A stretch of 64,000 nucleotides of DNA from Sphyrna mokarran (Eukaryota). Within the stretch, counting starts at the first letter, position 1. Each line of letters opens with the position of its first letter. The notes beneath the pieces were generated by a model that searched no databases, was not told the origin of the DNA, and worked only from the letters and a program-made list of their open reading frames with translations. The position numbers and the translations under genes are program-made. The DNA is taken from NCBI GenBank assembly GCA_024679065.1, contig JAGIQG010000016.1:12400001-12464000 (forward strand). The letters are read 5' to 3'. Positions 1,851 to 57,355 of this stretch are shown here, piece by piece.

Positions 1851-1869
1851 TATGTCAACTGTCAACTAC

Positions 1870-2127: not shown

Positions 2128-2149
2128 TGGCATGTATTGCAGACTTGTT

Positions 2150-5630: not shown

Positions 5631-5666
5631 CTAATCCTTGTAATAATCTTTTGCATGTCGATAGTT
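5631..5666 (-). CDS. Micro-exon 21 (36 nt): ELSTCKRLLQGL
   Basis: aaatctgcactgcag|AACTATCGACATGCAAAAGATTATTACAAGGATTAG|gtgagt. Confidence 0.85.
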   Translation of the reverse strand, partial: NYRHAKDYYKD

Positions 5667-5976
5667 CTGCAGTGCAGATTTATTTTTTTATTATATAATT
5701 GAACTGCCTTTGTTTCTCAAAGTCAACAATTGATTCATCCATAAATGTTGCCTAATATTTGGCCATCACAAAGTAACGTCAGAACATGCGCACTAGTTTT
5801 GCATTTGCTTTGCACATATCGACTTCTATTTATCCAAAATAGCCCAAGACAATCCAGTTGCCAAACGACCTCGTTAAGTGTCAAGCATAACCGTCCTCTC
5901 AAAGAATATCAATAGGTCATTCATAAGATTTGAACGTCGTTGCTGTCGGTAGGATTGTAGTTTATATTTAGGTTAC

Positions 5977-6003
5977 CTTTTTCTTTGTCGGCCAACTTGT
6001 CCT
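5977..6003 (-). CDS. Micro-exon 20 (27 nt): EDKLADKEK
   Basis: gttgtttgctgcctaatag|AGGACAAGTTGGCCGACAAAGAAAAAG|gtaacc. Confidence 0.85.
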
Positions 6004-6370
6004 CTATTAGGCAGCAAACAACATATAAATAATGCAATGTAAATACAAGTTCGAAAGTACAAATTTATTTAACTGTGCCCCGATCTGAATCGTCAAGAAT
6101 CTTCTCAAGTGTTCTTTTAACGAATGTGGAATAACAGGTACCCTTTAGAGGAAATTTTGCAGATTAATAGACCAACATGAATTCATATATTTACATGTTA
6201 CTAGAATGTGTAAGTTAATGACTTATTTGTTTGGTCATTAAAAATGCAACGAATCATTGGAGATGTTCGCAGTCACATCAAATGGTTTCTATTTCTAAGA
6301 TAAAATATGTCAACAGAACACGTGTCTACAATTACGAAAGTTAGAGACATTGGCATTTCAAATGACTCAC

Positions 6371-6406
6371 CAAGTTCCATCAATGATTTTTCATACTTGG
6401 CAATTT
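6371..6406 (-). CDS. Micro-exon 19 (36 nt): EIAKYEKSLMEL
   Basis: attaaatttgatccag|AAATTGCCAAGTATGAAAAATCATTGATGGAACTTG|gtgagt. Tyr replaces the usual Cys. The peptide is visible in ORF 6273..6461. Confidence 0.8.
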
Positions 6407-6607
6407 CTGGATCAAATTTAATATAACGTTTTTTTTCACGTTCAATAGATTCTATTACCAAATGCTATGAAATTTGTTCGAAAAAAATAAAAGAAACACG
6501 AAAACGGACTGCTAGCTGCCTAGAACTTGAATAAAAGAAACAATTGAACAGAACAATTAATTCACTTATCAAAGGCAAGGCTACATTTTATGATACAGTA
6601 AATAGTG

Positions 6608-6850
6608 TCACAACACCAAGTTAAAGTCCAGCAGTTTTATTTGGCAGCACGAGCATTTGGAACACATTTTTTTTTTTCATCAGATGAATGCTGGATTGTT
6701 TCAAATGCTGAAAAATAAGTGTACTCGCCTGATGAAGGAACCGTGCTCCAAAAGTTACTGCCACCAAATAAACGTGTTGGATTTTAATCTGGTGCTGTGA
6801 GATTGCTCACTGTGGCTACACCAGTCCAACGCCTGCAGCTTCATTTCCTG
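6608..6850. mobile_element. Penelope-like element terminus arranged as an inverted repeat
   Basis: Arm tcacaacaccaagttaaagtccagcagttttatttggcagc (from 6608) is the imperfect reverse complement of the arm ending ...ccaaataaacgtgttggattttaatctggtgctgtga (6800). Contains CTGATGAAGG-stem-CCAAAAG. Confidence 0.65.
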
Positions 6851-7339
6851 ACGTTTCATGTTGGCCGCACAGCTGCATATTATCTAGGGTAGCGAGCAAT
6901 GTGCAATGCAATGCGACTTAGTCACGGATACTTACGACTTAAGAACGTCAAAAATAAGTTATACAAAGCTAAAACACTGCGCTGAATGTCAAAATGGAGT
7001 GCCAATGCGGCAGCAATATTTTCAATCAACTCAATTCTAAGAATGGCGGGCGAAGGGAATTTTGTCAGTCCTTAGCAGAATCTTCCGACTGCAACAGCCA
7101 GAACAGATTCTTTTCAAATTAAGCTGATCCTGTATGCTATGTGCTATGTTTTCAGCATTCTGAGAGAATTTTGACTGTATCCTTGCAGACATCAATTCCC
7201 AGCACAACAAGGCTAATGGTAATGCAGTCCAGCACAGTCTGTTAAAGAGGGAATAATTTATGTAAACTGCAAAAGCAAATATATACATTTGCAATGTTGA
7301 ATGTCTTGAAATTTCTTTGGCAGCTGAGCGCCATCACAA

Positions 7340-8660
7340 TCCGTTCATGTATCCTAAATAGTGGGGAAGGCAGAGGACGAAATTATTGGGGCATTGAGAG
7401 AAATATTTTAATCTTTACTGGTTACAGGGGAGGTCCAAGATGACTGGAGAATAGTCAGTGTGGTTCCGTCGTTTCAACAGGATGCCAAAGATTATCCAAG
7501 TTACCCAGTGTCCAGTTAGCGCGAAAAATATAAAAAAACAACCTTTTATTTATGGGTGAGCCTTTGGTCAAGAGTAAGTATATTATTGGAGATGATTCTT
7601 TGAGATAGGTTTTAATCATACGTGGAAATAAGTTGACATGTTAGCGAGAGGCGACAGGATTTTATGAGATGATGTCTTGCCTCAATATTTTCATTTTTTT
7701 TGACGAAGTGACGAAGACACTTGATGAGGGTAAGGCAGCGGATGTTGCCTCCATGAGCTTTGCCTTTTACAAAGTTCCTCATGGCAGACTGATACAGAAC
7801 GTGAAGTCGTCGTCTTGTTACAAAAGTTGCAGCCGACACAAAAGTTGTTGGAATAGTGAATGCTAATGAGGACCGAGGATAGTTCGAGATACAAATCAGT
7901 GGAGACTGGAGCACAGCAATGGAGATGGAGTTTTATCCGGGAAAATGCAGTTAATGCATTTTCATTATCTAATAGAGATGACGAATACACAGTAAATAAC
8001 AGAACCTTGAAGAGTATTGATAGACACAGGGATCTTAGCGTGCAGGCGCACAAGTCACTGAAACTGACAATACTGCTTGGGAAGATCGTCGAGAAGGCAT
8101 CCGGCATTCAGGCCTTCATTGGCCGGGATATGGAATTCAAAAAATGGCGATTCATCTTTCAAGTTTATAGAACCGCGCACCATGGTTGGAATGCAATGTT
8201 CAATTCTCGTCGTCACGCTACCATAATAATTTGAAGAGCTTGGAAAAGAAAAAAAGAGCTTTTTTTTCGTTGAGAAGGCATTTACTATGAAAAGACAGGG
8301 TGAAATTGGGTGTTTCTTACTGGAACGATGGAAGTGGAGGGCGGCCCAAAAGAAGTCTACAAGGCCGCGAAGGACATGAACAGAGTCGATACTCAGAACT
8401 TTTCCAAGATTGGAAGAGTAATTTATGGGGGGGAAGGAGGGGGGAGGGGGGTTGTGGAGCGTGGGCACCTGTAGCTTGCAGCCGCTGGAGTTCATGGGAG
8501 CAGGTACCATAGTAACTTATGAGGGGCATCTTGAGATCTAAAAGAACAGGATAGGAGTAAAGAGATACGGTCAGGGAAGGGCAGTAATTTTAGGTCATTC
8601 GGGTAGCATGGCCGGTGCGGGCTTGGATGGCCGAAGAGCTAATTCCCGTGTATTTTTATT
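7340..8660 (+). mobile_element. CR1 LINE remnant
   Basis: TGEVQDDWRIVSVVP, FFDEVTKTLDEGKAADVASMSFAFYKVPHGRL, YTVNNRTLKSIDRHRDL. CR1-type tail ggccgaagagct near 8630. Confidence 0.9.
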
Positions 8661-8814
8661 TTATTACTTGCTCTGATACTGTGGTACGCTAGAATTCAAC
8701 GTACGATTTTCTGAGTTTTGTTTTGGAACTGTTGTTTGGCATTGGGGTGGCCAAATGGGGTTTGTCAATGTTGTGCCGTTGTAACGGTGGCACAGAAGGC
8801 CTTCTGGGATGCTT

Positions 8815-9210
8815 TTTGATTTGATTTATTATTGTCACATGCAATAGTACACCGTCACGTGTATTGTTATTTTTGCACGCTATTAAGACAAAATAGGATA
8901 ATGAAGTAAAGTGGAGAGTGTGGAATGGCTACACTCATGGCTAGGAGTGGAGAAATATCAAATTCGTCTTAGAAAAGTACAATTAAAAGTCTGATGGAAG
9001 GAGGGAAGAAACTGTCCTTGAGTCGATTGGTCCGTGACTTGAGACTATTGTATCGTTTATTTTCCCCCGAAAAAAAAAGTTGAAAAACATATATCGATGG
9101 ATTATTAATTATGCTGGCTGATTTTTCTAAACAAGTGGAATTTGTAATAGAATCAATGGGTGAGAGGTTGTTCCGCGTGATGGATTGGGTTTCATAGATT
9201 TTACACATTT
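8815..9210 (-). mobile_element. Rex1/Babar-like LINE 3' end
   Basis: ORF 8969..9208 ends RYNSLKSRTNRLKDSFFPPSIRLL. Tail aataaatcaaatcaa on the minus strand. Confidence 0.75.
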
Positions 9211-9404
9211 TCTTTAAGCATTTTGAAGTTATACGGCTATCGCACGAGCATTTATTTGTAACTTTAGTTTTCCCTGGTGCCTTACAAAATCACGGATTAT
9301 TGCATTTTTTTTCGTGAACTCAATTCATATATTTTGCAGTAACGCTGACATTGACCAGCTCAATATTTCGAAGTTCAAAATATTGAATGTTTTACTCCAT
9401 ATAC

Positions 9405-9431
9405 CTTCGTTTTTGGTTTCCAACTTTGCTT
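9405..9431 (-). CDS. Micro-exon 18 (27 nt): EAKLETKNE
   Basis: ttttgttttattttcaatcag|AAGCAAAGTTGGAAACCAAAAACGAAG|gtatat. Confidence 0.85.
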
Positions 9432-9836
9432 CTGATTGAAAATAAAACAAAAAAATCCAGACAATGTAAATTGAACGCAAATCACTGGGAAGTTGGGGGG
9501 AGAGTGTAATTCTCTCATAAATACATTAATTTACCAAAATATTGCAGGATTTTTTCAATGAAAAATACGTTTTGACAACGATACGACAACACATTGACTG
9601 TAGTACTGCAATACCGTTTTTTTTTAATACATCTTCTGAAATCCTTGTGATGGATCTCCAGATTGTCGAACACATAAGTTTGTAACGTTTCCTATGTCTA
9701 CAAAATTGCTACGATACACTTAATAAGCTTAGAGGTATGTCAAAATGTTCCCGTAGCTTCGTACAAGTAGGTGGAGCACGAGCACGTTCACCTGTGAAAG
9801 ATGATATTTTTAGTAGAAGTGTTAATTGATACTCGC

Positions 9837-9872
9837 CTAACTCGTTCAACAACTGTTTGCACTTGGCTATTT
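9837..9872 (-). CDS. Micro-exon 17 (36 nt, GC donor): EIAKCKQLLNEL
   Basis: gatttacctgtacatag|AAATAGCCAAGTGCAAACAGTTGTTGAACGAGTTAG|gcgagt. The peptide is visible in ORF 9709..9891. Confidence 0.8.
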
Positions 9873-10349
9873 CTATGTACAGGTAAATCAAAGTTATGAT
9901 TAATTTGACAAGTCATTCGTTTAATTAGTTCATTAGCAGCGTAACATTTCAATGTGCTGAATGATTTACAAAACATATAGCTGTTAAAGTGTTTCTCATG
10001 CATGTATTAAGGACTTGAATGTCACAGAACCAACATAAGAGAAACCGTCGTTCAGTTGCCCAAAAACATTTTAAAAAATGTTATAGATTTACGTTATAGC
10101 CCATATGAAATAGAAAGGGGGGATCATGAGACAGTGAAACATCGTGGAGGCAGAATCAGATAAATAAACATGTTGCACATTGGGTACAGTGTTTAGTTGG
10201 ACAACACATAAGGCCTATTTCTTGCGGGCTACGGTGAGATCAAATGCCTCGAAGCCGTGAACCATGCATTCGACAGAAGCTATGTCTATACTTTAAGACA
10301 ATCAGTAATAAACCATATTTCTGTTAAACGGTTGGAGATAATGGATAAC

Positions 10350-11610
10350 ATCAACCTATGAATGCCCATGGACTAGGTAAGGTGTTGAGGATGGCCTTCT
10401 CAAGGGCAATTAAGGATTGGTAGGAGAAACTGATCCAATAACTGATCCTCATCTGATCAGACAAATAATATGAAGTAGCAAGGCTGAAAATCAGAAGAGA
10501 TTGAGCATGTGGCATCAAAGTGTGGAAGCAAATCAAAACCAGCAATCGATGGGAAAGGGCGTTTTGTCAGCAGCCCTGTCGCAGAGTTAGAATGCCATGC
10601 GAATTAGTTATTTTTGCAACTACTCCATTGGGGAAAAAAATGTTTCTATTATGTCACGATCTTGGAGAAGTCCACTTTGTAATCATCCAAATAAATGATT
10701 ACCGTGTATTCACTGTCCATATGAGAACTGAGGCGAACTCAAATAAAAATGTTGTTGTTGTTTTCTACATGGATTTCAGTAAGGCATGTGAAGTGTGTTA
10801 GGTAATACAGCAGTATACAGGTACACTGTAAAATTGGGCAGGAAAATGTCAGATGAAATTAAATATGAAGAAATGCAAATGATACAATTCCGTAGATGCA
10901 ATTCGGGGTTGGAGCTAAAAACAAATCAGAGCAATCAGGAGCATAGACAAATAGAGGACTGGGAATACAGGTGTGCAGATCCTTAAATGTGGCAGCACAG
11001 GTGGAAACATCGTGAAGAACACATATGGCATGTTCATCTTTATCGAAGGGGCACCGAGTATAAAAGTTGGCAAATTATGTTATAGTTGTATCAAGTATTG
11101 GTTCGGCCACAATTGGAATACTGCATCCATTTCTGCATCCATGCACAAAATAACTTGGACATTTTGTAGAGAGTGCAAAAAGGTTTACCAGGTTGATGGC
11201 TGGAATGGAGGGTTCTAAGGAGAGATTGACTATACTGGGATTGGTCTCCCTGGAAAGATGAGGACTTAAACGGCAAACTGATTGAAGTTTATATAGTTAG
11301 GGTGAGGTGCTTGAAGTTTTTTTTTGTTTTTCTAGAGCTTAAATGACAAGCAGAGGGGAACGTAATTTCAAGCTAACGAGTGAATGGCTCAGTTGAGATT
11401 TGCAGGCTTTTTTCAACGCAGAGAGTGAAGGCGGCTCAGAATGCAGTGCAATGTGAAGTGATTGAGACAGTTAAGATGGTCACATTTAAGACTTACCTGA
11501 TAGGCATATTTATAAACTTGGAATAGAGGGATGTACGATGATTGTTTATATAGTTAAACGTGGTTGGCACAGCTGCTCCTATGCTGTAGTGTTTTCTGTT
11601 ATTTGTTGGT
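10350..11610 (+). mobile_element. Old CR1 LINE remnant
   Basis: VVVFYMDFSKA, NIVKNTYGMFIFI and other CR1 RT C-terminal similarity. Heavily decayed. Confidence 0.75.
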
Positions 11611-12113
11611 TATGTTGTTCTTTCCTTGAAAACGGGGTCTCTGCATAGAAGAGGTCCAATATTTCATTAGTTAATTTGATATAGTTTAATTGTTCAGTGA
11701 AAATGCTTGCCCACAGAACTTAACATTTCCAGGTAAGTAACTGCAAATCTTAAAAGTATTTCGAGGTTGATCGGTGATTGCTCAAGACTAGCTTTTTAAC
11801 GGTTGAATCCTAGTTAAATTATGATAGGCGCAAGGTGCTTACATTTGCTGACAGACATCGAAATTCCTGTTCACTTCGGGACCGCAAGTCTAGCACCCAA
11901 ATTTGCAATTAATCACTTTTAAACGTTTGAAGAGGTAACATGCAGAGATGCATCAAATACTTGCTTTAGTTATAGATAAAGGACACATTTATGCCTTTGT
12001 GCAAGAGGTGGCTGAAAGTGGTTTGCAAAATCATTGATGAAACACTTTGAATAAGAATGGGTTAGGAATTCATTCTTATCTAATTCATACCATTGCATAT
12101 TTTACTTTGTTAC

Positions 12114-12140
12114 CTTTTTCGCATTCTTCCAGTTTTTCTT
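12114..12140 (-). CDS. Micro-exon 16 (27 nt): EEKLEECEK
   Basis: gtttctttgccaacag|AAGAAAAACTGGAAGAATGCGAAAAAG|gtaaca. Confidence 0.85.
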
Positions 12141-15100: not shown

Positions 15101-15539
15101 AACTTGCCGTAAATAAATTGTTTTGTTTTCACCCTCACTGCTTGTATTCCCTCCTTTTATGATGCATTCATACAGCAAACATATTCCCCCGTTTACTGAG
15201 GCTGGAAAACTGGGTGAATAATTTAAAATAATATGCGGTTTTAGATTATCAGCAGTTGGTATGTTTTGTTTCAATGAGAATACAATTCATGATTGATCGG
15301 AAAAACACTCGAACCTTCAGGATTTAAAAAAAAATCGTCTGAAGGACTTGTTGACTAAATTTAGGATTTTTGATATCTGAGTTGTAATCAGAATCATGTA
15401 ATTCCAATGGTTGCGGAAGTGAAACATTTGCCTCATCCAGATGGAAACAATTCTCCAATGGAATATCTGGTGTAACTCCACCCTAACACTAATCAAAAAC
15501 ATTCACATGTTTTATATAGCAATTCATTAACATGTACAT

Positions 15540-15680
15540 TTTTAATCTGTGGGAGGAAACTGCAGTACCAGAGGTAATGCAGGCAGACACGTGGAGAAAG
15601 GCGAAGCCCTATGAAGACAGGGCTGGAATAAAATATGGAACCTGAGCGCCAATAGTGCGATGCACGATGATTTTGTGACA
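15540..15680 (-). mobile_element. HE1/V-SINE-like SINE remnant
   Basis: tgtgggaggaaactgcagtaccagagg...gcagacacgtggaga resembles the reverse complement of the V-SINE core. Confidence 0.55.
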
Positions 15681-16145
15681 TCCTCATCAAGCGGCTCCCA
15701 ATCTGCCCCTTTTTCTCATCCTTTCCATTAAAAGAACAACACTGTTGTCTGAACTTAAAACTAGTAGTATTTTTTTCTCTTTTTTTAAGGATCAATTTAG
15801 CAATGTCGAATTAATGCAAGAAACCCTCATATTAATTTAGACGCATTATTATCTGCCAGCCGCTGTGCTAGCACTTTGGCCAACGCTGAATGAAACCTGT
15901 TAAGTCTGTTTGGCGCAAGTTCTATGCCTATGTTTCCTCCTTTGTACATACTTTTCCGGTTTTGTTTTCGTCATTTTTCCTCATGTGATGACCAACTACA
16001 AATCTGTAGCATTAGCTAACCCATTGACTCAAAGATCGTGGTCAAAACTGATTTAGGTAAAATTGTGCGGAAGAAACTCTGAAAAAATGATAGACATGCA
16101 ATGATTACTACCATGATTTGAACAGGTAGATATCACCATACATAC

Positions 16146-16181
16146 CGGTTTCTTTTAAAGCAGTTTTACATGTGTATAACT
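16146..16181 (-). CDS. Micro-exon 15 (36 nt): ELYTCKTALKET
   Basis: cttgtttctgtgtttgcgatctag|AGTTATACACATGTAAAACTGCTTTAAAAGAAACCG|gtatgt. Confidence 0.85.
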
Positions 16182-16812: not shown

Positions 16813-17520
16813 TATTAAGTTAATGGAAGGACTCTTGGTAGTGTGGATGAGCAGAAATCTCGGTGTACATGTGCATAGATTCCTGAAAGCTGCATCCAGG
16901 TTGATAAGGTTGTTAAGGAGGCGTACGTTGTGTTGTTATCTTTTATTGGTAGGGGGATTGAATTTCGGAGCCTTGAGATCATGTTGCAGCTGTACAAAAC
17001 TCTGGTGAGGCGAACTTGGAGAATTGCGTACAGTTCTGGTCGCCGTTTTATCAGAAAAATGTGGAAGAGTCGGAAGGAGTGCAGAGGAAATTTACCAAGA
17101 TGTTGTCTGGTATAATGGGAAGGTCTTATGAGGAAAGACTGATGGATTTGAGGTTGTTTTCGTTAGAGAGGAAAACGTTAAGAGGTGATGTAATTGAGTC
17201 ACACAAGATGATCAGAGGATTTGATAGGGTGGACATTGAGAGCCTTTTTCCTTGGATGGTGATGGCTAAAACGAGGGGACATAGATTTAAATTGAGGGGT
17301 GATAAATATCGGACGGATGTCAGAGGTAGGTTCTTTACTCAGAGTGTTGTAAGAGTGTGAAATGCTCTGTTTGCAGCACTTGTGGACTCGCCAAATTTAA
17401 GAACAATTAAAATGGTGATTGGATAGGCATATGGACAATATTGGAATAGTTTAAGGGTCATTAAACTGGTTCCACTGTTCAACGCAGTATCGATGGCCGA
17501 AGGGCCTCTTCTGCCAAGAC
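16813..17520 (+). mobile_element. CR1 LINE 3' portion
   Basis: FIGRGIEFRSLEIMLQLYKTLVR, CVQFWSP and TRGHRFKL..RFFTQ. Tail ggccgaagggcct. Confidence 0.92.
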
Positions 17521-23387: not shown

Positions 23388-23414
23388 CGTTTTCTTTGTC
23401 TTTCAGTTTTTCTT
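23388..23414 (-). CDS. Micro-exon 14 (27 nt): EEKLKDKEN
   Basis: aaatatgtcttcag|AAGAAAAACTGAAAGACAAAGAAAACG|gtaaca. Confidence 0.85.
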
Positions 23415-23786: not shown

Positions 23787-23822
23787 CTAAATCGTTTGAC
23801 AAGATTCGGCACGTGGATAAAT
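23787..23822 (-). CDS. Micro-exon 13 (36 nt): DLSTCRILSNDL
   Basis: ctttccttcccccaaatgatccag|ATTTATCCACGTGCCGAATCTTGTCAAACGATTTAG|gtgagt. Confidence 0.87.
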   Translation of the reverse strand: MYPRAESCQTI

Positions 23823-24689: not shown

Positions 24690-25235
24690 TATTGTATCGT
24701 TGTTGTTTCATTATTTCAGAGGAGAAATCCTTTTTTCTTACAGTACTGTACAATTATTGGCGAGTGTTATGAAGAGATTTATCAGGATGCTCCCTGATTT
24801 AGATGGTAAGTCTTATGAGCAAAATTTTGAGGGAGCTCAGATTATTCTGTTTAGAACGCAAGACGATGAGGCGCGGCTTAACGTAGGTTTATAAGATGAT
24901 GTGGAGGATAGGTAGAGTGGACGTTCAGGGACTAGTGCCTCTGGTGGATGTAACTGTTGCTAGCGGGCATAAATAAAAGTTTCATGGTTGGAGCTATTGG
25001 AGATGTCCGATGTAGGTTATTTACTCAGAGAATATTTGGGGTGTGGGATGGACTGCCAGCTGTGATAATTGACATTTTAGGAACTTTCAAGAGATTATTC
25101 GATAGACCCAGGTAGCACACCACAATGATAGGGATTGGTCTTTGTTTCGGACAAAGCTGGGCACAACATCGAGGTCAAAAGGGCCTGTACTGTGTTGTAA
25201 TGCTCTATGTTCTATATAGACGTTCTATAATGTTC
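24690..25235 (+). mobile_element. CR1 LINE 3' remnant
   Basis: KRFIRMLPDLDGKSYEQ. Tail gggcctgtactgtgttgtaatgctctatgttcta. Confidence 0.85.
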
Positions 25236-26193: not shown

Positions 26194-26220
26194 CTTCATT
26201 AATTTCACGCATCTCTTCCA
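26194..26220 (-). CDS. Micro-exon 12 (27 nt): VEEMREINE
   Basis: catcaaccaatttcaacag|TGGAAGAGATGCGTGAAATTAATGAAG|gtatgt. Confidence 0.83.
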
Positions 26221-40639: not shown

Positions 40640-42470
40640 TGATTGGATTTTTTAAAAATTACTTTTGAAGCATGATTGTGCTTAAGAAAAGTAGGATATA
40701 AAGACACACGAAGGAATACACGGAAAGTAGACGACGAAGTAAGCAATGGGCAAGGAGTGGTACATGTGATCACGAAAAATCATTGATTCGCAGTCTTAGG
40801 GAAAAATATAATTGGTTCTATACACACATAAAGAAGAAAGGGTAGCGAGGGAGAAGGCAGACTGACTCAAGACAGTGAAGAATATCTACGAGTGGACCCA
40901 GAAGAAATGGTCACGGAAGTAGATAAATATTTTCGTCAGAATTTACCAAAGAGATTGACTTGGTAGTTGATGAGCTGGTGAAGGGTTTTCAGATACTTTT
41001 AGTCACGTTGTGATCAAAAACAAGGAGGTATTGGGGGTCTTGAGAAACATTTAGACAAGGCACAGAGTATCATGGGGTGCAATTCAGAACACTGAGAGAA
41101 CAAGAGAGGAAATTGCTGTAGCCTTGAGGGAATCGTTGTATCCTTAATGACTACACGGGTGTTCTCTGGGAATTGCAGAATATCCAATGTTGTTACTTTG
41201 TTCCACAAGGGTGGCAAGAATAATTCCAAGTTGGCGAGCCTTACCGCAGTAGTACGGAAATTATTGGAATCTGCAGCAAGACATTTGACAATGTCCCTCA
41301 TAGCAGAATGGTGCAAAAGGTGAAATCAAACGGGTATCAGAGTTGAGCTGACAAAATAGATACAGAACTGGATCGATCGTACGAGACAGAAAATAACAAT
41401 GAGAGGTACATTTCTCAATGGAGGGCTGTGACAAGATCAGTGCTGAGAAATTTGCTGTTTGTAATAACCACAAATGATTTGTAGCAAAATGTCACAGGCT
41501 TGATTAGTAACTCTGCAGATGACACCATGTTCGGTGGATTTGCATATAATGATGAGGAGCGTCAGAAAATACAGCAGAATATAGATCATTCGGAAATATG
41601 AGCGAAGGGATGAAGGCGTCATTTAATCTGGAAAAAAATGAGGTAATTCATTTTGGAAGGTGTAATAAAATCGGAAATAAACAGTAAATGGCAGACACTT
41701 AAGATATTGATAGGCAGAGGAAAATGGGTGTACAGGCATAGAAATCATTGAAGCTGGCAACACAGTTGGAGAAGATAGTTACGATACCATTTGGCATGTC
41801 TGTCTTCATTACCCAGAGCATTGCGTTTACAAGTTTGCAATTCATGTTGCACCTTTATAGAATCTTCGTTAGGCCACACTTGGAATATAATGTACAATTC
41901 TGTTCGCCAAACTACCAGTAAAATGTGGAGGTTTTCGCGTGGGAAGAGAAGATAATTAACAAGACATTGCCTGGTATGGAGGCCATTTGCTATGAGGAGA
42001 CTTTGGAGATTTGTTTTTGTTTTTGCTATAGGAGCAACCTCATAGAAGTCTGCAAGGTGATGATGGGCATGGACAAAGTGGATAGTCAGAGCCAATTTCC
42101 CAGGGTGCAAGAATTAATTACGAGCGAGCGGGGAGAGGTTGGCGAGAGAGTGGGGGGTGGGGATCAGGGCGCTAGTGGGCGGGGCAGGAACGGAGGCAGA
42201 TTTAAGGTGCAACGGACAAGATGCAGAAGAGATGTACAAGACAAGTTCTTTTTTCAGAGTTGTTGTGGATGCCTGGAATCCGCTGTCAATGGAGTTAGTG
42301 GAAGCACATGCCATCGTGACACTGAAAGGGCGAGTAGAAAAAATATGCAAAGAATGGGAATGGGGAGATATGGTCCCCAGAGGTGTGGAGGGGTTTAATT
42401 TCATCGCGCAGCATGTTTGGTGCAGATTAGGAGGGCCGTAGGCATGTTCCCATTTTAAAATATTCTGTTT
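40640..42470 (+). mobile_element. CR1 LINE remnant
   Basis: RT fragments RISNVVTLFHKGGKNN, SNSADDT, RPHLEYNVQFCSP and SFFRVVVDAWNPL. Confidence 0.9.
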
Positions 42471-42725
42471 TTTTTTTCATCCTTTGTCATACATTTATGC
42501 GAAATTATTTGAAAACATTGTTTTTGGAAAGTAAATTGAAATTTTAAAATCAAAGTGCTTAAATTGGTATCTGAAGTAACGAATTTAGATTTTGATTTTT
42601 TTTTTGGTTCAAGTTGTAGTATACGATTTCAAGGTGGGACCGGTATCTTTATTTTGCTCTGAATAAGTCGTGGCGTTATCACACTGGAATCGGTTTTATA
42701 GCTTTTGATTTCTTAAATGGCAGAG

Positions 42726-43775
42726 GTTTCAAAGTGATCCAAAACTTAAACTTCCGCAGTTAGATTTCAAAATTTCTCACCTACAAATGTTGCAATTAAG
42801 AATCAATACGCATTGGTGATTATGATTTTTTTTTATGTTTTTCGATTTCGAGACAAAATTAATTCGTTGTGTTCGAAGCCGAATGCATTTTTTGGGTGTG
42901 AGTTGTTTTTAAGTAGGTGACTCCTGAGTAACAAGTCTAGCTGATTGATGAGTTCAAGACTTTTTTTTCCCTGAACTTAGTATTATTTGAGACCTGCAGA
43001 TTTTAACGCAGTCAGATATTCACACAGTTACCTTTGAATTAAAATGAATGATTATACTTAAGCGTTACAGTTTCTGAGATTTATTTGATTGAATATATTG
43101 AATGCATAGAATAACCGACTGATATAAATTGAAGTCACCCAAAATCTAAAAGTGTTAATATATTTAAATGTTGTTGACAAATTAAGGCTCAGAAAAAGGG
43201 AGGTGGTATAGCTTTTGCATGTCAGAGAGGAATAACTTGAAACTTATTCCTAGTTCACGATGCTGCTGTTTGAATCTAGGATAATTTTACAAAGTAATGT
43301 TTGTTTGTTGTGTGACTTCTCCATGTTGAATGAGTGTCATCTACGTCAATGCACAAGTTCACGTGCAAAGCATTTGATTCAATATAACTACATGCCAATA
43401 AGTTGGGAGCTAATTTTCTGTGAGAATATAAAGACTCTGCAGAACGCCAACGACATTACAACAGATACTGGGATTTTCCAACTATTTAATTGTGCAATTT
43501 GACATCAGTCAAAAAGCTGACAAGCGGGACAAACACACCATTGATGCAAACCACTCTATTCAGAAATACAATTCTACTGTAACAGATGAAATGATGGATT
43601 ATTTTTTTTCTCTACAATTTTCTCAACCAGTCGAGAATCATTTGAATTAGTTCTGACTTGTACTTTGGGTACATTGTGCTAATTGTATCATCAATCAACA
43701 TACCGTATGCATATTTGTAGGTGAGAAATTTTGAAATCTAACTGCGGAAGTTTAAGTTTTGGATCACTTTGAAAC
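42726..43775. repeat. Perfect 63-bp inverted repeat (42726-42788 / 43713-43775) with 924-bp spacer
   Basis: gtttcaaagtgatccaaaacttaaacttccgcagttagatttcaaaatttctcacctacaaat and its exact reverse complement. Confidence 0.92.
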
Positions 43776-45369
43776 ATCACGGACGTTGGAGTTTTAAACC
43801 TCCGGCTTCAGTACTTTTGGTTCATAACCCTCGTAAACCCAAATTTAAACTTTATTTCGTTTTCTCATCAGTACCAAGATTTATAATTATCCAGCCCATA
43901 AGACTGAACCTAATATATTGTAAACATTACTAATTTGAACAAAGTTTTAACTGGAAAAGTTTGCAGAGAATGTGAACCAGTTGTATTGGATTTCACTGAA
44001 ATACATTTACCTGAAAGGCGTCTCTCTCAGCTTCGGGAGTATTATACCTTTTTCATTTAACATAGAGGTAGTTAAATCAAGAAGTGACAAATGTGGCGCA
44101 ATAATGATTTTCTGATTTAAAGCGAACGGAGGAAGGAACAAATTAATGATTTAGCAACTGCTAGTGTAACTGTGTTCATGGATAATACTTCTGATTTGAT
44201 GAAACCGGGCACTTATACTCAAATACTACCCAGGTTTGTTAAAACAGTTCGAATTTTACAATGTTAATTAGACATCCAGATACGGACATTACAAAACTAG
44301 ATGCTGCTGCTTACTTTACAAAATGTGAAATGAAACGAGAAAACAATGCAACAATGCATTTGAAAATGCTGTTAAAACACAAAAAAATTATAATTGCAAA
44401 TACAACGTTTCCTACATGTTAATACGTTTTTTTTGACTGGGTTCTGATACAAAGTGCATGGGAAAGAGATTAGCCTTTGTCTACGATCCATTTCGCTGTA
44501 CGCTCCAGAATCAAGATGAATATCTGAGGAGAGAGAAATAATGCCTTCAATAATCATTTAACAAAAAACATGGCAATAGTTGATTTTATTTGCCTATTTT
44601 GGCTGAGTGTAAGAATGCTGGAAATTTAGGTCAAATTATGCATCGAAAACATTTGCAGGTTGTGAATAACGTCTAGTCTGGGCGCTGTGATCTGAAGCTT
44701 TCTGTCTTAGTCAGATCAGGGATATTGTTTACACTAACTCAGGCAGCGTGGTTCCGACTGTTACGGCGGCTTTGTACGGTACATAGAAAATTAACAACTC
44801 ATGATGGCATTCTTCAAAAGTATGTTTGCTGCATGTTCAAGCGATGTGATCGGTGTATGGTGAGACAGTCGACTGGATGTTAAAGAATCTTCTGAAGAGG
44901 GTGGAGAATTGCGGATCAAAAAGGGAAGTAATTATTTGTTTGGCAGCAATAGCTTTAAGAGAACAGTTATCACAACAAGAATTGTACCCTGAAGGATACT
45001 ACAGAAACGAGAAGATAAATTCTACATCGAGAATATTTCTTGGTCAAAGTGTTCCTAAAATTGGTAATGTCTATTTTTATTCAAGTTTATCGAGTTGATA
45101 TTCAGTTAAAGTTAAGTGGTAGTGTAAGAGTTAAAGATCAGTTGAGAGTTGATGTGTTTCATTTGTGCGTGCTTGCGTTTATTCTTTAACTGTTAAATGA
45201 ATAAATAATTGATTTACTGTATTTGTTTGACTCGTTAAATTGGGATGCTTGAAAACGTTTGAACTAAAGTTGTATGAGAATACCAATTCAAAACATCATT
45301 GCAGCATCTGCTCAATATTTCCAAATTCGTCATTATTTACATGCTTTCCAAAATAAAATTGGAAGTTGG

Positions 45370-46737: not shown

Positions 46738-46773
46738 TTAATGTTTTGTTCGCAGCGTTGCAGTCGTCCAACT
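46738..46773 (-). CDS. Micro-exon 7 (36 nt): ELDDCNAANKTL
   Basis: gatttcttcacttgcag|AGTTGGACGACTGCAACGCTGCGAACAAAACATTAA|gtgaga. Close paralogue of exon 3. Confidence 0.85.
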   Translation of the reverse strand, partial: SWTTATLRTKH

Positions 46774-47189: not shown

Positions 47190-47216
47190 CCGTTTCTTTA
47201 TCTTTCAACTTCTCCG
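47190..47216 (-). CDS. Micro-exon 6 (27 nt): AEKLKDKET
   Basis: ttttttcctttcaaaag|CGGAGAAGTTGAAAGATAAAGAAACGG|gtaaat. Confidence 0.85.
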
Positions 47217-49554: not shown

Positions 49555-49770
49555 TCATGAAATCATAAAAACCCCACAGTGCAAAAAAGAAGACGATTCG
49601 GCTCTTTGACTCTGCACCAAACACAATTCCAGTCCCAATCCCCATTCCCCCAGATATTTATCCACTAATTTTTCTAATGTAAGCAACCCGGAACTCTAAG
49701 TGACAACCTAGTATGGCCAATTAAATAAACTCGCACATCATTGGACTATGGGTGGAACCTGGAGCACGCG
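49555..49770 (-). mobile_element. HE1-like SINE remnant
   Basis: cataaaaaccccacagtgcaaaaaagaagacgattcggc...gtatggccaat...cgcacatcattggactatgggtggaacctggagcac. Confidence 0.65.
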
Positions 49771-50109
49771 TTAATATACAATATATTCTCATTCCTCTCA
49801 GAAAGTAGTTAGTATGGGAAATTATTGGCACAAAATTCGTATCAGCCACCATCTCATTAAGGGGCAGATGACGGGTTTCTCGGAAATTAAAGCTGGAACG
49901 GATGGAAACAATGGAGTGATTTTATTACAGCAAACCACCAAATGTGCTCATAATAATACTTTGAAAATCTTTTGCGAAAATTGATTGCTGGAGATCTGGG
50001 ACGTGATAGCTTGCATTCCTAAAATCTCTACGCAAACTTCAACTTATCACGTCACCTCTATTGCATAAAAAAGATAAATTTCTTCCGAGGGAGGACATCG
50101 TTTTCTCAC

Positions 50110-50145
50110 CTAAATCATTCACCAAATTCTGGCATGCGGATAATT
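50110..50145 (-). CDS. Micro-exon 5 (36 nt): ELSACQNLVNDL
   Basis: tttatttttggttgagcag|AATTATCCGCATGCCAGAATTTGGTGAATGATTTAG|gtgaga. Confidence 0.87.
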
Positions 50146-51551
50146 CTGCTCAACCAAAAATAAAAACATCACATTTTTCGAACTTCTGTTGATATTTTGA
50201 TTCTTTTTTTAGAATTGGTCTTAAGAAGTATGTATGTACATCGTGGTATGCAGTCGTCGTTTTGCAATCGAACAATTGCTGAACATCTTTAATTGTTTTC
50301 AGCGGTTGGTGACATAGACTATTATTGATTGTTGACTGTCCACTGTTTTTATAAATAGCCACAACACACTTTTTAATGAAATTGGGACTGCAGTCATTCG
50401 ACACAGTGACAATGAACGAATGAAAATATATTTCTGTCTCAGAAGCGTGCACTAACTGATGAGATATGCCCAGTTATGGCGTGCAATTGGTATCAGTTAA
50501 ACCTGTTTTTGGAAGGACATTTAGAATGCACCACATTTTTTTCAGTAGGCATGAATTGAATTTGGATAGGTCTGATCTTCTCCTTCCCTGCAAATCGCCC
50601 ATGTCAGCAAAGAAGCATTAAACAACGTTTGCAGACTGCAAGACTTCTAACATATTAACTTATCCTTATTTTAACATTGCTGTGATCAGCAATTTCTGTT
50701 CTACCGGTCGAAGCGCTTCCGATTGTGTTTGATTAATTCAATTCTGACTAAAAAAAAATGAACATCTCATACTTACTGCATTGTGTTCAGCGAACGATCA
50801 ACCCTTCATCACATTGAAGCCGGAATTTAGTTTTAACTGTGACAAATGCATTACACGCGTGGAGAGCAAATTCATTTTATAAACTTGCTGCCAACGACTG
50901 CAGACCACGCATAGCTAAGTCAAAGTTCACTGTAATGCGAGTGTTCTGAATGGTTTGTCATTCATTAACTTATTTAGTCTCATTACGATGCATGCAGTGT
51001 TCACCAGGTGCCGAGCTGCACCATTTACGTTTTGATCAAATGAACAACATTTTCTGTAAAACGTAACCAACGATGTCAGGAGAATGACCGCCTTATGAAA
51101 CCAGTTTTCCTTTTAGAATGACAAGTTCGGTTTGAATCAAAGTAAATCAATTACCCAGGTGGCATAATTATCCTAATACGTGAAACTTTTCGAACAGTTC
51201 ATCCAGGTAATTCAAGGGCATCAGTTCGTAACAGTGCCACCTGCTGTCCAAGTGGATGATTTAGTATGATTCTTTCACCCTCCGCAATACCATCATTTGA
51301 AACGTGCAATGAAAACAAATTTCATAGATCAGTCTTCAAACTTATTCTTGATAATTAGCGTCAGGTATATTGTCAGATATTTTCCTCGGGCCAAATCATG
51401 TTATTTGAGCATTTCTGCATTGTTATCACAAACGTATTTTTACCATGGATATTACTGCTATCAGTGTTGCCGATTGCATCTACTTCGATGTTAATTCAAT
51501 TATTTTAATTTTAGCTAAATTCCTGAAATCAACAAAGAGAAAAACACATAC

Positions 51552-51578
51552 CTCGTTTTAATTCATCTAATGATTCAG
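51552..51578 (-). CDS. Micro-exon 4 (27 nt): AESLDELKR
   Basis: ctttcaattaaatccaccag|CTGAATCATTAGATGAATTAAAACGAG|gtatgt. Confidence 0.8.
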
Positions 51579-52974
51579 CTGGTGGATTTAATTGAAAGAA
51601 ACCTGAGTTTTTAACAAGAGCACAATATTTATCTGCATGATCCTAATTACTCATCTGATGAAAATGATGCACTGAGGAGGCACTATTCCATCCAGTAAGT
51701 AAGTAAAGTATGTGTGCTCTAATGTATTGTAACAGTTTGCATATTTGCGAAAATGGCAAATATATGCAACAGCGAACACTGCGAATGCATATTGTATACT
51801 ACAATAATGAATCTTAAGTTTCCAAATTTGTCTTATAAAATGAACTTTCAAAATGAAGGATGCACTTACATTATCGCATTTTGTTATTAAATATTAGATG
51901 GGGACAAGTTTGTTTTTAATTACATATTATTACAAGAAAAAAATAAATTGTGAATCAAAAATGCCGAGTACAAACACGCTGGTACATTTTATTCAGAACG
52001 TATCGCCTGAATCTACAGAGTGAATACTAATAAGAGTGCGACCAACATGATATAAAGTTCATTATCGATTAAATTATTGGGAAATTTCAATGACAAAATA
52101 CTTAACTCTGTTTCACTTTGCGACGATGGTACTTGACCAAACATTGTTTGCATTTGCGTTCAATCCCGAATATTTTCTTTGCATTTACTATTGCTTATCC
52201 TTATGGGTTATAGCATATAAAAATATCATATATGAGACAATTGTATAGAGGCACTTAATAAATAAACTTCGATGCTCCTTGAATAGTCAGCATTTGAATT
52301 CCAGGAACTAGATGCACAATCTTTACTGACGCTAATTAGCACCGGTGCATTCCAAAAAAAAAGAAACGGATTGATGGTCTGCTGTTACATAGGACAAGAC
52401 ATGGAGTATTTTCAATTGAGGATTAGAGAAAAAAAAAGCTGCTCACAGAATTTCAGGTTCGGGCACATTATATAATTTCTATTCGAATCCGTGTAAAATG
52501 TAGAATCAGGACATAAGCTCATATATCGGATGGTTCTGGGTTCGTGTGGAATGCATTGCATGCAAACTAAAATTTGCCGACCGTTCTATGGCTGCTTTAT
52601 CGGTTAGGTCAGAATTTCAAATGTGAGCCAATAAATGAAATATGCGATATAATATCACAACTTTTAACAATTTTGATTTTGTTAATACATATTACAGCAT
52701 AAATGCATTGTTAAACTTCAATTTAATCTCAAATCGGACTGCAATATTTCATTTAGGTCTTGCATGCACCGTGGATTTTCTGTGTTCAACCATTGGAAAT
52801 GTGTATTCTTCCTCGGTTTACTTTCTCTCAGAGCTTCCCATGAAGCATTTTTGCAGGCTGCCTCCGCTCTTCCCCTTTTTGGCAAATCTTGCCTCCCTTT
52901 GTCTCTCCATATCTCTATGACACGCAAAGAGTTCAGGTAAAATTCTCACGTAAGCCTTGCTCATTCCTGACACA

Positions 52975-53200
52975 AAGGAACATAGGCACAAAAACGAAAC
53001 AAAAAGGTACAGATATAAGCTATTCGGGTCCTCAAGACTGTTCTTCAATTCTACATTGCACTGGCTTATTCAAAGTCGTAACACCATACGTCCGAGATTT
53101 CTCCATGCTCCTAACATCTTTGCAGTTAAGGAATCTATCTATTTCATGTTTTAACATATTCAGGGTTGTTTCCTTCACAGCTTTCTCTGTTTTCCAACGA
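52975..53200 (-). mobile_element. CR1 3' end remnant
   Basis: KAVKETTLNMLKHEIDRFLN in ORF 53032..53238. Confidence 0.7.
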
Positions 53201-53371
53201 CTCATATCCCCCGAGTGATGAGCATCCTCATCATCCAATAATGTAATAGCCTGCCTCGCATACTAACTGTAGCCACAGGCAAATGACAGATCGTGTAAAC
53301 AAGCAATCCCAACAATGCTCTTTATGCTTGAACAATTCAAAACATGAAGGAAAAATGCATTTTCCTCTTAC

Positions 53372-53407
53372 CACATTCTTTATTCGCATAGTTGCATCTC
53401 TCCAACT
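53372..53407 (-). CDS. Micro-exon 3 (36 nt): ELERCNYANKEC
   Basis: gattcattacag|AGTTGGAGAGATGCAACTATGCGAATAAAGAATGTG|gtaaga. ELxxC motif. Confidence 0.85.
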
Positions 53408-55005
53408 CTGTAATGAATCAACGTGTGCATCAGAAGCCATCACTCGATCTATGGAATCTGTAATACGTCAACAGGTCGGTTTGTGACACACAATATTAGG
53501 TTAGTATAATAATTCTCAGATGTTTTTCGAACTTCAAAACGTATGAATATCGGGGAAACCAGCAGCCCTTCAGCTCCGGTAGTCCCGACCTCAATTCTTA
53601 GTAATAGAGTGTCAATGTCCGTGACACAGTGATACAAATATATAACACTTAATAACATCTTTGTAAAACTAAAATGAAACGTTATTTGGTCTATGTTACA
53701 ATTGTTAGAGTGGAGGCATCAAAGCCTGAATTTTAACAGATACCCGGATATTGACAGAACGTAAACAGTTCACATGATCAAGGGGGTCAAAACACTGTAA
53801 TAAAGAAAATAAAAAATGGCAACAAATACATTAGCTTAATCGATTCCACCAAGGCATGTACTGCTGTGACCAGAAGTAGGCAACATTTTTTTCTTCTTCG
53901 TCCTGGAAATAATTCGCTGCTGACTGAGACTGTTCAGTGAAATGTCATCTGTTGCTGGCAGCATAAACATTAGGAATGTGTCTGAGAGTCATCATTAAGA
54001 GTTTGAGATGAAGACGAATGTTAAGATGTATTGTTTTTATTTGAGATTGTATACTAATTTAGATCATTCATAGGACCTGCGTTTTTCTACAAAAAAAAGC
54101 AAAGCTACAGAAAAAAAAAGTGTATTTAACAGATAGAGCATAATGTTTTGAAATTCAGGAAATATAATCCGCAGCGAATAACTGTTCAAAACAGGGACGT
54201 CCAAACAATTCAGTCAGAGAAACATCTGCCGTTGTGAACATCTACCACGTGGCATAACCCTTGAGACAATTATCATGTACAAGGTTTCAATAGAAAGCCA
54301 TCATTAGTCTTGACAGTGCCTGATCGGATGGTTTCAACATTTGCATCTTCAATAAAAATTGACGATCACAAACCATCTCTCTCATGACGATGAAATCAAA
54401 GCAGCAGCAATGCCGAGCTGAAAATGTGTATATACGTACAATGAGTAATCACAATTACATTTTCAGGTGTATTCTCGCTCGATAAATGCAATGAAAGAGT
54501 TTCCAGTACTTCCTAGTATGTTTCAGATTGCAGCTTCCACAGTTAATTTATGTTATGGAACAGATGCATTCTGGCCAAGAACATTAATTTGTGTTTGTTT
54601 AGTCAATGCATTCATCTAAATCAATTACGAGCTTAGGCAAATGAAAAGTCTATTCGACTTTTGTTTTTATGTTGATGGAAAACGGAGCCCTCCAATGAAA
54701 ACTCCGCAGACTGGGAGAATAATTACAGACTCCATAGTCATCCAGTGCTGCAATGCAACATTTGTGCTTCACCTTGCCAGAGAGCAATGTGAGCCACTGT
54801 GCTACAGTGCCGCCTATTTGGACACGAAAGTAAGCTGACCATTCACAATGAATACATTATTTTAAGGCAAACATATGATTATGGATGCATGAAATGTTAC
54901 ATATTTCAAATCAACTGTAAGAATCGAAAGTAGAAAATTAATTGTCGACAGAAGTAAAAGCCTCACAACTTCAGTTCAGTGGAATTTTAGATTCAGACAA
55001 ATATT

Positions 55006-56003
55006 CCAAGGCAATAGCAAATTTCATATGTGTTTCATCCCTTTAGCGTATCGGCACATGACGTCTTCTACGGCACCTTGTAAGGAACTATATAATCGGA
55101 ATTACCTGGCATTCTAAAATCACAAAGGAAAAATTAACCTGTTAGGAGATTTTATTGTTGTTGTTATAGCAAAATATTGCTCTGTATTTAAAGTTAATCT
55201 GCCCTGGACGAAACACATTCGGAACTAAACGGCCAATATAGTCCCATTCAAAGCAAATGAGACAAGATACGTCTGGGTACAATCATCCTTTGAGTACTGT
55301 GATTTTTCTGATATGAGCAATTGGTCATGCAATTTGATAAAGACGCATCCATTCTCTTCAATCCTGCCATGTGGCTTAATTGTATCATGTCTTCAATTCC
55401 AAGAGACAACGTTGTAACATGGCAGTTTGCTATAACTTAAACTTTTTTTTTCATTATTGAGTTATCCATGACTATATACAGATAGGCATTCATATCATTA
55501 GATGTGCAGGGAATATTCAATTATGACGTCTGTCCCTTAACTGACTCAAAAAAAAAACAAAATTAGGTAACTCATTGCTAGTGTAAATATATTTTTTTTT
55601 TACATATGAAGAAGGAGAATTATTTGCAGTTGATTCAGAACGTTTAGACTGGAACCAAATATACAGCTACTATACTATTGTCCAATGCTTTCAAGTAAAT
55701 ACTGTTGGACGTAAAAGATTCGATGATTTTATCCGGACGTGTCTTGATCCCATTTGTTTTGAACGGGAATATGTTGGCCGTTGAGCTTCGAATGTGTTTC
55801 GTCCAGGGCAAATTAACTTTAAATGTAAAGCAATATTTTGCGATAACAACAACAATAAAACTCCTTAACAGTTTAATTTTCCTTTTGAGATTTTGTAATG
55901 CCAGGTAATTACGATTATATAGTTCCTTAGAAGGTGCGGTGAATACGCCTCGTGCTAGTATGCTAAACGGATTATACACATATCAAATTTACCATTGCCT
56001 TGG
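55006..56003. repeat. Diverged inverted repeat of about 282 bp (55006-55287 / 55722-56003)
   Basis: For example aaggaactatataatcggaattacctggcatt vs aatgccaggtaattacgattatatagttcctt, and tgccctggacgaaacacattcg vs cgaatgtgtttcgtccagggca. Confidence 0.9.
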
Positions 56004-56590
56004 TATTCATTCAGAATTGACTATCAAGCCGCACGGCATCTCACAAATTGTGCGCCCTTAATTTTACTCTTCAGCGGCCACTTTACATTTTCATTCGAGT
56101 GCGTTTTCATTCAGAATTCCAGCAATTGCCTTCTATTTGGGTAAAATTTATTATTTTAATATTTCCAAGTTCCTTTTTTTCAGATATGCGCATGGTCTCA
56201 TCCCTCCCGAATGATAAATATTGCTGATTAACAATTCAATAATACTTAACTTCGAATCACTCTCAATGAAATATGTCTCCCACTAAACCATTGTTTATCA
56301 TCTTTGAAATGAAAGTCAGCTCTTACTATCCATAATCTTTTCACATTTGTCTGCATTTTTCGTTCGCATAACATTCACACAACAAATCGATATTAATGGT
56401 GTCAAGGAACCTTCAAGAAACCTCAAGAACAAAACAACTTCATACAGTTTTCTAATGAAAGACTGGTGACAGATGACAGATGGACGTTGGCCTCTATGGG
56501 CGAAAAGGCAGCCACTCACTGATCACAATATCATCGCAGTGCTTTATGTCACTTCGCTCTGGAACAATTGTCTACCGGTGGCAAAGTTAC

Positions 56591-56617
56591 CTTCTACTTT
56601 TTCCTTCAATTTCGCTT
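56591..56617 (-). CDS. Micro-exon 2 (27 nt): EAKLKEKVE
   Basis: cttttctcactcacag|AAGCGAAATTGAAGGAAAAAGTAGAAG|gtaact. Homologous to the other 27-nt exons. Confidence 0.85.
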
Positions 56618-57325
56618 CTGTGAGTGAGAAAAGTTACCGTAACAGTGCAAATACAGAAGGTAAATGATTAAATTACAAATTAAAACAAAATACTCGTTAT
56701 GTTTTTTGGTATTATTTCAATGCTGAAGTTGCTTGCTTCACTTAATTGATGCTAAAGTGTGGGGGGGGGGGATGGGGGAAGCAAATTGAGTGAACCTTCA
56801 GGGAAGATATGTGGCAACGTGGGAGCCTATGGAGGCGGAAATGTTGGTCGAAGATTCAACTTAATCAGTGGGCAACCAAATTGATTAGAAGCTGAGGTGT
56901 TTACGGTACAATAAAGATTTGCAAAAGAAAAGCCTCAACACTAAGACTAAAAAAAATGCGCACAGATATGGAATGAAATGTTCTTTTTGGAAGCAGCAGA
57001 AGACCCACATTTGGAAATCTCAATTACGTTATAACATTTTGGTGACATGCAACCTGAGGCTGACTTAACAAAACAAAAAATAGGAAGAAGGAAAGTTTGA
57101 TAGCGTGCAAGCGGTAGAACAGAAGACATACACCCAATGAAAACGTTGCTGCAAGGAAAATTCAGTTTTGGGCAGAATACAAATATCTGTACAATCTGAA
57201 AGCAAATGACAGAAGAAGAATGCAGAGAAAAGTATTACGCGCTGCAAATTTGAAATACTAGTATCATTGACTTAACATGGAATAACGAACAAAATGATGA
57301 ACAAACACTTCAGTTTTTCCCTCAC

Positions 57326-57355
57326 CTAATTCTTCGGCATGTTTTCCTGCTGCGT
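57326..57355 (-). CDS. Micro-exon 1 in window (30 nt, phase 1-1) of coiled-coil micro-exon gene: xAAGKHAEEL
   Basis: ctgaattgcag|ACGCAGCAGGAAAACATGCCGAAGAATTAG|gtgagg. Ends TTAG|gtgag like several 36-nt exons and is in frame with the next exon. Non-standard length and a weak polypyrimidine tract. Confidence 0.55.
   Translation of the reverse strand, partial: TQQENMPKN

Follow-up and report, generated by a model that had tools for sequence, protein, structure and literature searches.

Here, we describe a stretch of 64,000 nucleotides (nt) from the shark Sphyrna mokarran (assembly GCA_024679065.1, contig JAGIQG010000016.1, or C668 hereafter; G000:C668:12,400,001-12,464,000; the window), whose minus strand carries 21 tiny exon-like segments. 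With a probability of roughly 0.6, these segments are mid-gene coding exons of one giant micro-exon gene, whose product would be a coiled-coil rod acting as a tether for a B30.2 head. The data support that they are coding exons with a heptad pattern in the window, that a B30.2 exon stands at the end of their array, and that the gene has relatives in a gene family. An earlier note, made from the letters of the window only, had taken the segments for part of a lineage-restricted rod protein built from duplicated exons with its terminal domains outside the window, and this view is supported.

Micro-exons in the window

Profiles grown from repeat-finder seeds recovered ten segments of 36 nt and seven of 27 nt directly; three weaker 27-nt segments are the next-ranked profile matches, and a 30-nt segment is visible at 57355-57326. 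The 30-nt segment is followed on the same strand by alternating segments of 27 and 36 nt from 56617 to 5631. In the order of transcription they are:

57326..57355, minus: 30-nt phase-1 micro-exon, CAG acceptor and GTGAGG donor; the array goes on upstream of the window
56591..56617, minus: 27-nt micro-exon, pair 1
53372..53407, minus: 36-nt micro-exon, pair 1
51552..51578, minus: 27-nt micro-exon, pair 2, divergent type
50110..50145, minus: 36-nt micro-exon, pair 2
47190..47216, minus: 27-nt micro-exon, pair 3, AAG acceptor
46738..46773, minus: 36-nt micro-exon, pair 3, final base A
37582..37608, minus: 27-nt micro-exon, pair 4, most divergent, leave-one-out score 13 bits
33825..33860, minus: 36-nt micro-exon, pair 4
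33219..33245, minus: 27-nt micro-exon, pair 5
28239..28274, minus: 36-nt micro-exon, pair 5, AAG acceptor
26194..26220, minus: 27-nt micro-exon, pair 6, divergent type
23787..23822, minus: 36-nt micro-exon, pair 6
23388..23414, minus: 27-nt micro-exon, pair 7
16146..16181, minus: 36-nt micro-exon, pair 7
12114..12140, minus: 27-nt micro-exon, pair 8
9837..9872, minus: 36-nt micro-exon, pair 8, GC donor
9405..9431, minus: 27-nt micro-exon, pair 9
6371..6406, minus: 36-nt micro-exon, pair 9, Tyr replaces Cys
5977..6003, minus: 27-nt micro-exon, pair 10
5631..5666, minus: 36-nt micro-exon, pair 10; the array goes on downstream of the window

Every segment that the earlier note had listed as bounded by AG and GT (or, once, GC) was found in its place. 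Acceptors are CAG in 16 cases, TAG in three and AAG in two, donors are GT in 20 and GC in one (after 9872-9837), and the last base is G in 20 of the 21. If the segments are joined by script into 660 nt, the three frames contain 20, 13 and 0 stops; the phase-1 frame alone is open, through 219 codons, as had been claimed. The proposed motifs hold for the greater part of each class, K-L being present in seven of the ten 27-nt exons, Cys in nine and a final Leu in seven of the ten 36-nt exons. A looser unit of four exons (42 residues) is also apparent by eye.

How easily could such a series arise by chance? The observed order of 10+10 exons has a chance of 5e-6. Leave-one-out profiles score the 20 exons at 13-40 bits, and at most two plus-strand positions in 264 kb reach the score of the exon in question (none for 17/20 exons), so that the exons are separated from the opposite strand. 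A generic splice rule blind to the exons finds 13 minus-strand segments of 27 nt and 18 of 36 nt, whereas 100 shuffles reached 12 and 10 at most; this rule is weak when used alone, with 7 and 10 such segments on the plus strand and 11 of 30 nt on the minus strand. Across exons, third codon positions change more (0.52 and 0.63) than first or second ones (0.40-0.45).

The hydropathy period of the joined window rod is 3.50, which agrees with the earlier proposal that each 21-residue pair makes three heptads. In the corresponding register, positions a are L4, L11 and residue 18, and positions d are K7, C14 and L21; Cys thus occupies d (position 14) in nine of the ten window repeats, and in 23 of 24 36-nt exons of a wider set. 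The window rod is acidic (60 D/E, 40 K/R) and has neither Pro nor Trp. An Atlas search returned no usable match, generic coiled coils staying below 0.9.

Extent and duplication of the array

The array goes on in the 100 kb on either side of the window (a coordinate outside 1-64000 is a C668 position less 12,400,000). The alternation, which had been described as unbroken, is so within the window; seen from outside, it is a local stretch of 27 exons, from 56617 to -20222, past whose two ends come runs of 27-nt exons together with some of 15, 21, 24 and 30 nt. A free-length, in-frame scan (18-45 nt, 349 kb read) gave 58 exons on the minus strand versus none on the plus strand; 55 of them are 27 or 36 nt long and one is 21 nt, the splice profiles having been trained on these same exons with the length left free, after profile matches with stops at 162499 and 103259 had been removed. 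By hand tally, the union of all methods comes to approximately 79 exons, the most upstream of which lies at C668:12,590,790. Of the pattern matches, 19/21, 37/67 and 36/42 fall within 8.6-13.8 Mb of C668 (controls 0, 29 and 4), and 26 of them, every one on the minus strand, are spread across 11.98-12.30 Mb. The pattern for 36-nt exons of the 5′ type has no match above 12.559 Mb; this is not the end of the array, because other exon types run on to 12.591 Mb.

The minimum span of the gene becomes 665 kb, at least ten times the length of the window. The connection between the window and the terminal exon described below crosses 11.98-12.30 Mb, and these 320 kb are bridged by pattern matches, not by direct reading; the same exon subtypes recur on either side of the gap's edge. 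At least 580 residues of the rod have been read directly, and extrapolation over 665 kb gives about 110-150 micro-exons and 1,100-1,500 rod residues. An α-helical coiled coil rises by 0.148 nm per residue, from which the rod would be 160-220 nm long.

A block of 57-63 kb is duplicated downstream of the window, and its introns still align at 73-81%. In eight duplicated exon pairs, exons are 92% and flanking introns 82% identical; pS, at 0.186, matches the divergence of the introns, and pN is only 0.052 (Fisher p 0.007). The duplicated exon pairs are under purifying selection, with pN/pS about 0.28. The second copy of the block is without one 36+27 pair, and one exon there has lost its acceptor: the segment at L008:530-565 (~C668:12,330,565) is identical in 33/36 positions to the 36-nt exon at C668:12,385,764, and the next 36+27 pair is missing. 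Further 3′, matches recur at intervals of about 50-70 kb, which suggests that additional blocks were duplicated there. Growth by duplication of exon pairs, as the earlier note supposed, is therefore upheld as far as duplication goes, and duplications of whole multi-exon blocks have to be added to it.

The exons at C668:12,370,526 (L004) and 12,307,585 (L011) are paralogues. Both have a strong donor at 15 nt, whereas at 27 nt one has a weak donor and the other has lost it; 15+27+27+36 nt make 35 residues, or five heptads.

The terminal B30.2 exon and its family

Inspection of the flanks for terminal-domain exons, proposed in the earlier note with B30.2 among its candidates, led to a C-terminal domain outside the window: a SPRY search gave a match just 3′ of the array and on the same strand. 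The 3′ end of the array consists of:

C668:11,930,493, minus: last 27-nt micro-exon of the array, downstream of the window
C668:11,925,595-11,926,115 (L024:1095-1615), minus: terminal 521-nt B30.2 exon

The terminal exon lies 4.4 kb past the last micro-exon, is intact, is entered in phase 1 and matches Pfam SPRY at E 1e-16. Its predicted fold is PRY-SPRY (pLDDT 87), with TM 0.73-0.81 to PRY-SPRY structures. No further SPRY match was seen within the gene span among the 150/228 and 150/191 candidates scored.

Seven related B30.2 exons, all with open frames, are conspicuous in the genome; six are on C668, the seventh on contig C1548. Each of the six on C668 has array matches 5′ of it on the same strand. 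The exception is C1548:100.5-101.4 Mb, at which array matches lie 3′ of the B30.2 exon, and because of this another terminal exon is expected there; the locus stands amid large TRIM/B30.2 and butyrophilin-IgC clusters. Two family genes on C668 are arranged tail to tail, 46 kb apart (11,879,160, plus; 11,925,604, minus), and the present gene and the next plus-strand gene would start head to head within 500 kb (12.59-13.09 Mb). For a neighbouring gene, the start has been narrowed to 65 kb, at 13.717-13.78 Mb.

In a FastTree of 110 domains, the seven genomic exons and seven database proteins form one clade (14/14, support 1.0, long stem); six of the proteins are named ones from catshark, electric ray, basking shark and elephant shark, and one is unnamed and clusters with a skate protein. 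The Ig and RING labels of the other domains in this tree are approximate, and butyrophilins (BTN) are thinly sampled. Members of the clade were found in cartilaginous fishes only, in accordance with the lineage-specific rod that had been predicted. The family models are:

Callorhinchus: XP_042192744.1 ('nuclear-pore anchor-like') and XP_007898089.1 ('myosin-2 heavy chain-like')
Scyliorhinus: XP_038668997.1 and XP_038672306-10
Narcine: XP_069775384-90
Leucoraja: XP_055510696/7
Cetorhinus: XP_078422387.1

These are automatic predictions, mostly partial and most of them 221-460 aa long, and their names come from unrelated best matches. They share the B30.2 clade, and those longer than the domain have coiled coil upstream of it. 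A difference of 9 or 12 residues is frequent among isoforms; when model versions and isoforms are compared, 12 of 19 pure indels have one of these two lengths, not all of them being independent. The B30.2 domain of the catshark model XP_038668997.1 is 71% identical to that of the present gene, and four of its upstream peptides match tail micro-exons in order, with scores of 35-40 versus a plus-strand best of 23, about 14 residues being without a match at this locus. This model is likely to be the orthologue of the 3′ end of the gene.

In elephant shark, XP_042192744.1 and XP_007898089.1 are two versions of one continuous model of 1,697-1,722 aa, in which a long rod with 9+12 spacing is joined to the B30.2 of the clade; motifs of the 36-nt class match four and five times, versus a shuffle mean of 0.04. 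The first 382 residues of such an elephant-shark model gave nothing significant against the Sphyrna genome, and its repeat region found in the protein collection its own two models only, among 8,000 candidates scored.

The novelty claimed in the earlier note is thus qualified, since partial database models of the family exist. No description of the family was found in the literature, as judged by titles and the openings of abstracts, nor any paper on the models; the available main text of PMC11979771, on catshark, has no mention of TRIM39, B30.2, SPRY, A33 or butyrophilin. In the B30.2 alignment (A4; L024, L025, L029-L033), a basic loop of R-W-x-R-P-like sequence typical of the clade is followed by W-x-x-x-x-W-N, whose W-N is common to TRIM21; the loop is a candidate binding surface.

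What lies upstream of the array?

The 5′ end of the array lies beyond the sequence that was read, and a V-set search was saturated with 150/1261 candidates scored. No transmembrane segment was seen among candidate exons up to 12.594 Mb, and no B-box on C668 at 12.59-13.09 Mb among 150/325 candidates scored. In the family models, 6/6 scanned have no Ig domain and no RING or B-box, most of these models being partial. Two of the six (P0098 and P0193) start with a hydrophobic stretch of 13 residues, the most hydrophobic in each protein. A CD23-like C-type lectin head was also considered; no match was obtained on C668 among 150/152 candidates, a search that split exons could escape, and the B30.2 domain was then found. 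A reading as a tetherin- or PLVAP-like protein was given up on finding B30.2, no search for it having been made. V-set and butyrophilin-type IgC matches do occur at C668:2.2-5.3 Mb, at least 3 Mb from the nearest array.

A proposed giant gene and its alternatives

How would such a gene work? One transcript would run from the window exons to the B30.2 exon, and its product may form a parallel coiled-coil dimer of about 160-220 nm. The rod could then serve as a spacer or tether that keeps two B30.2 recognition heads at a great distance from an N-terminal anchor, and by analogy it may be placed on the cytosolic side like a hugely extended butyrophilin or BG cytoplasmic tail. As all exons are phase 1-1, the frame survives when an exon is duplicated, lost or skipped, so that evolution and splicing could tune the length of the rod; the 9+12 units would keep the heptad register as well.

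Several points weigh against this reading. Exon junctions are predicted here from genomic DNA. The largest gap between pattern matches across the 320 kb is 54 kb. Beyond the window, where the exon lists are incomplete, the best period shifts to 3.52-3.54 with less power at 3.5, and the periodicity of the elephant-shark rod is weak; a continuous canonical coiled coil is supported for the window, not for the whole length of the rod, and Lys at d is destabilising. The array has been traced upstream to 12,590,790 only and the N-terminal anchor is postulated, while a search for butyrophilin IgC (28 matches from 88/88 candidates) had none upstream of the array. Also, no TRIM or BTN domain is clearly sister to the B30.2 of the clade.

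Might the same gene and rod act outside the cell, where Cys at each third position d would link the chains by a ladder of disulfides into a stiff fibre, or into a stalk of collectin type that carries a B30.2 head? We think this unlikely, although the regular Cys at d, phase 1 at every junction and the hydrophobic starts of P0098 and P0193 would all suit a secreted protein. So would the scarcity of Cys in the B30.2 domains of the family (mean 0.64, versus 2.96 in Ig-labelled and 2.72 in RING/B-box-labelled domains), though these are samples of one clade and not independent. However, the B30.2 domains of the family show no excess of N-glycosylation sequons (0.86 per domain versus 0.74 and 1.25), the window rod has one, and four other models start differently. 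A pyrimidine tract that was read through may account for the hydrophobic N-termini, which is suspected because P0193 and the genomic-looking P0058 enter the exon through Pro-x, as an acceptor ending in CCAG would give. Moreover, in the available parts of the sources, the B30.2 of BTN is intracellular (PMC12841164), and Cys is present in BG cytoplasmic tails too (PMC5938342). It is still less probable that the window exons belong to a separate, pure coiled-coil gene and that the 665 kb hold two or more tandem genes, of which the last alone has B30.2. The 320 kb bridged by pattern matches, the shift of exon subtypes along the array and the shortness of most database models would allow such an arrangement, but matches run on along one strand, the same subtypes reappear across the edge of the gap, the SPRY searches found no second terminal domain among the candidates scored, and the elephant-shark models are continuous.

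Names such as 'TRIM39-like' and 'A33-like' call to mind a TRIM-type E3 ligase with an overgrown coiled coil and with RING and B-box exons far upstream. The best solved-structure matches are indeed the B30.2 domains of TRIM58, TRIM21, TRIM11 and TRIM7, and a 27-nt exon followed by a 521-nt last exon fits as well; against this stand the B-box and RING searches above and, in the available part of PMC2533329, human coiled coils no more than 120 residues from B-box2 and compact group-2 genes of 1.4-27 kb, so that we regard a ligase as very improbable. Least credible of all, with hardly any weight in our estimate, is that the splice-like motifs arose by chance, or that the segments are the relic of a repeat or parts of a dead gene. 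One duplicated exon copy without an acceptor, another without a donor, and two stop-containing profile matches among the upstream exons could be cited for it, but the joined frame is free of stops, the strands stand at 58 to 0, pN/pS is low, exon order is kept across species, and B30.2 frames are intact in 7/7 paralogues.

The giant tethering gene thus remains our preferred explanation. A bolder statement, which we offer as rather doubtful speculation, is that this is an undescribed cartilaginous-fish family without Ig or RING/B-box, older than the chimaera-shark split, in which a splice-tunable, Cys-laddered coiled coil of some 200 nm projects a B30.2 head, possibly as an extracellular disulfide-locked fibre or a collectin-like defence molecule. 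If the rod is tunable by splicing, its length would be set exon by exon, as a molecular ruler of >100 micro-exons. If expressed in full length, the gene would be a test case both for the ordered splicing of >100 micro-exons and for the tuning of rod length by symmetric exons.

Other elements in the window

Among the 35 open reading frames of at least 105 aa in the window, none but a reverse-transcriptase fragment passes the Pfam cut-off, and an Rfam scan of the window gave no match. This fragment is the 3′ part of a retrotransposon, which we take to be of LINE type, at 57833-59011 on the minus strand (RVT_1, E 2e-16); related fragments lie near 16936-17398, 24771-25215 and 41842-42000. Two 1-kb elements with long inverted repeats, at 55003-56006 (arms of 193+66 nt, 87/77%) and 42723-43778 (66-nt arms, 98%), are probably non-autonomous DNA transposons. 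GT/CA and AT microsatellites and a 55-nt tandem duplication are found at 32909-32956, 34955-35140 and 29070-29124. Positions 1-3000 are more GC-rich, with a purine-rich low-complexity segment near 1760-1840, and two long open reading frames scanned there had no Pfam match. In the whole window and ten loci on C668, the observed/expected CpG ratio is 0.60-0.73, which is high for bulk vertebrate DNA, the values being measured without a control region.

Comparison with known systems

On one shark chromosome, a multigene family fills more than 2 Mb, and annotation splits it into fragments named after TRIM39, myosin and nuclear-pore proteins. The gene unites two features that are known separately, namely a micro-exon rod of BG type and a B30.2 head of butyrophilin/TRIM type. 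Because the family is common to chimaeras, sharks and rays, it bears on the origin of the heptad-exon tail of BG and butyrophilins.

The comparisons below go by the available parts of the papers. Chicken BG genes have exons of 21 nt (some of 18 or 24), 13-36 per gene in the B12 haplotype, which follow IgV and transmembrane exons; the long BG tail is contrasted with the B30.2-ended tail of butyrophilins, and one BG form acts on actin-myosin (PMC5938342, PMC4046983). The shark gene resembles them in a long heptad coiled coil whose coding sequence is divided among many tiny exons, each with its first codon split, in exon numbers that vary between genes, in its multigene cluster and in Cys in the tail. 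It departs from them in exons of 27 and 36 nt, neither of which is a heptad alone, so that the 21-nt rule of BG is not obeyed, and in its B30.2 end, its span of at least 665 kb and its >100 exons, a scale far above that of BG; no Ig or transmembrane exon was found in the region searched.

Butyrophilins (BTN and BTNL) likewise have heptad repeats and then a terminal B30.2 (PMC12841164, PMC4046983). However, BTNs have few heptads together with IgV, IgC and a transmembrane segment, whereas the shark rod is estimated at >150 heptads, and in the tree the shark B30.2 forms a separate clade apart from the B30.2 of Ig-bearing proteins. Enterophilins, which are mammalian and far shorter, also combine an extended leucine zipper with a C-terminal B30.2. 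Group-2 TRIM proteins, from which the database names derive, share the order of coiled coil and then PRY-SPRY (PMC2533329), but the shark rod and gene are far longer (at least 580 residues, 665 kb) and no RING or B-box was seen in the searches above. Finally, the micro-exon genes (MEG) of schistosomes also consist mainly of short coding exons between long introns and are alternatively spliced. Their products are secreted, the solved isoforms of MEG 2.1 are disordered and, as far as abstracts tell, they have no large terminal domain exon, in contrast to the 521-nt B30.2 exon of the shark gene; homology between the two is not expected.

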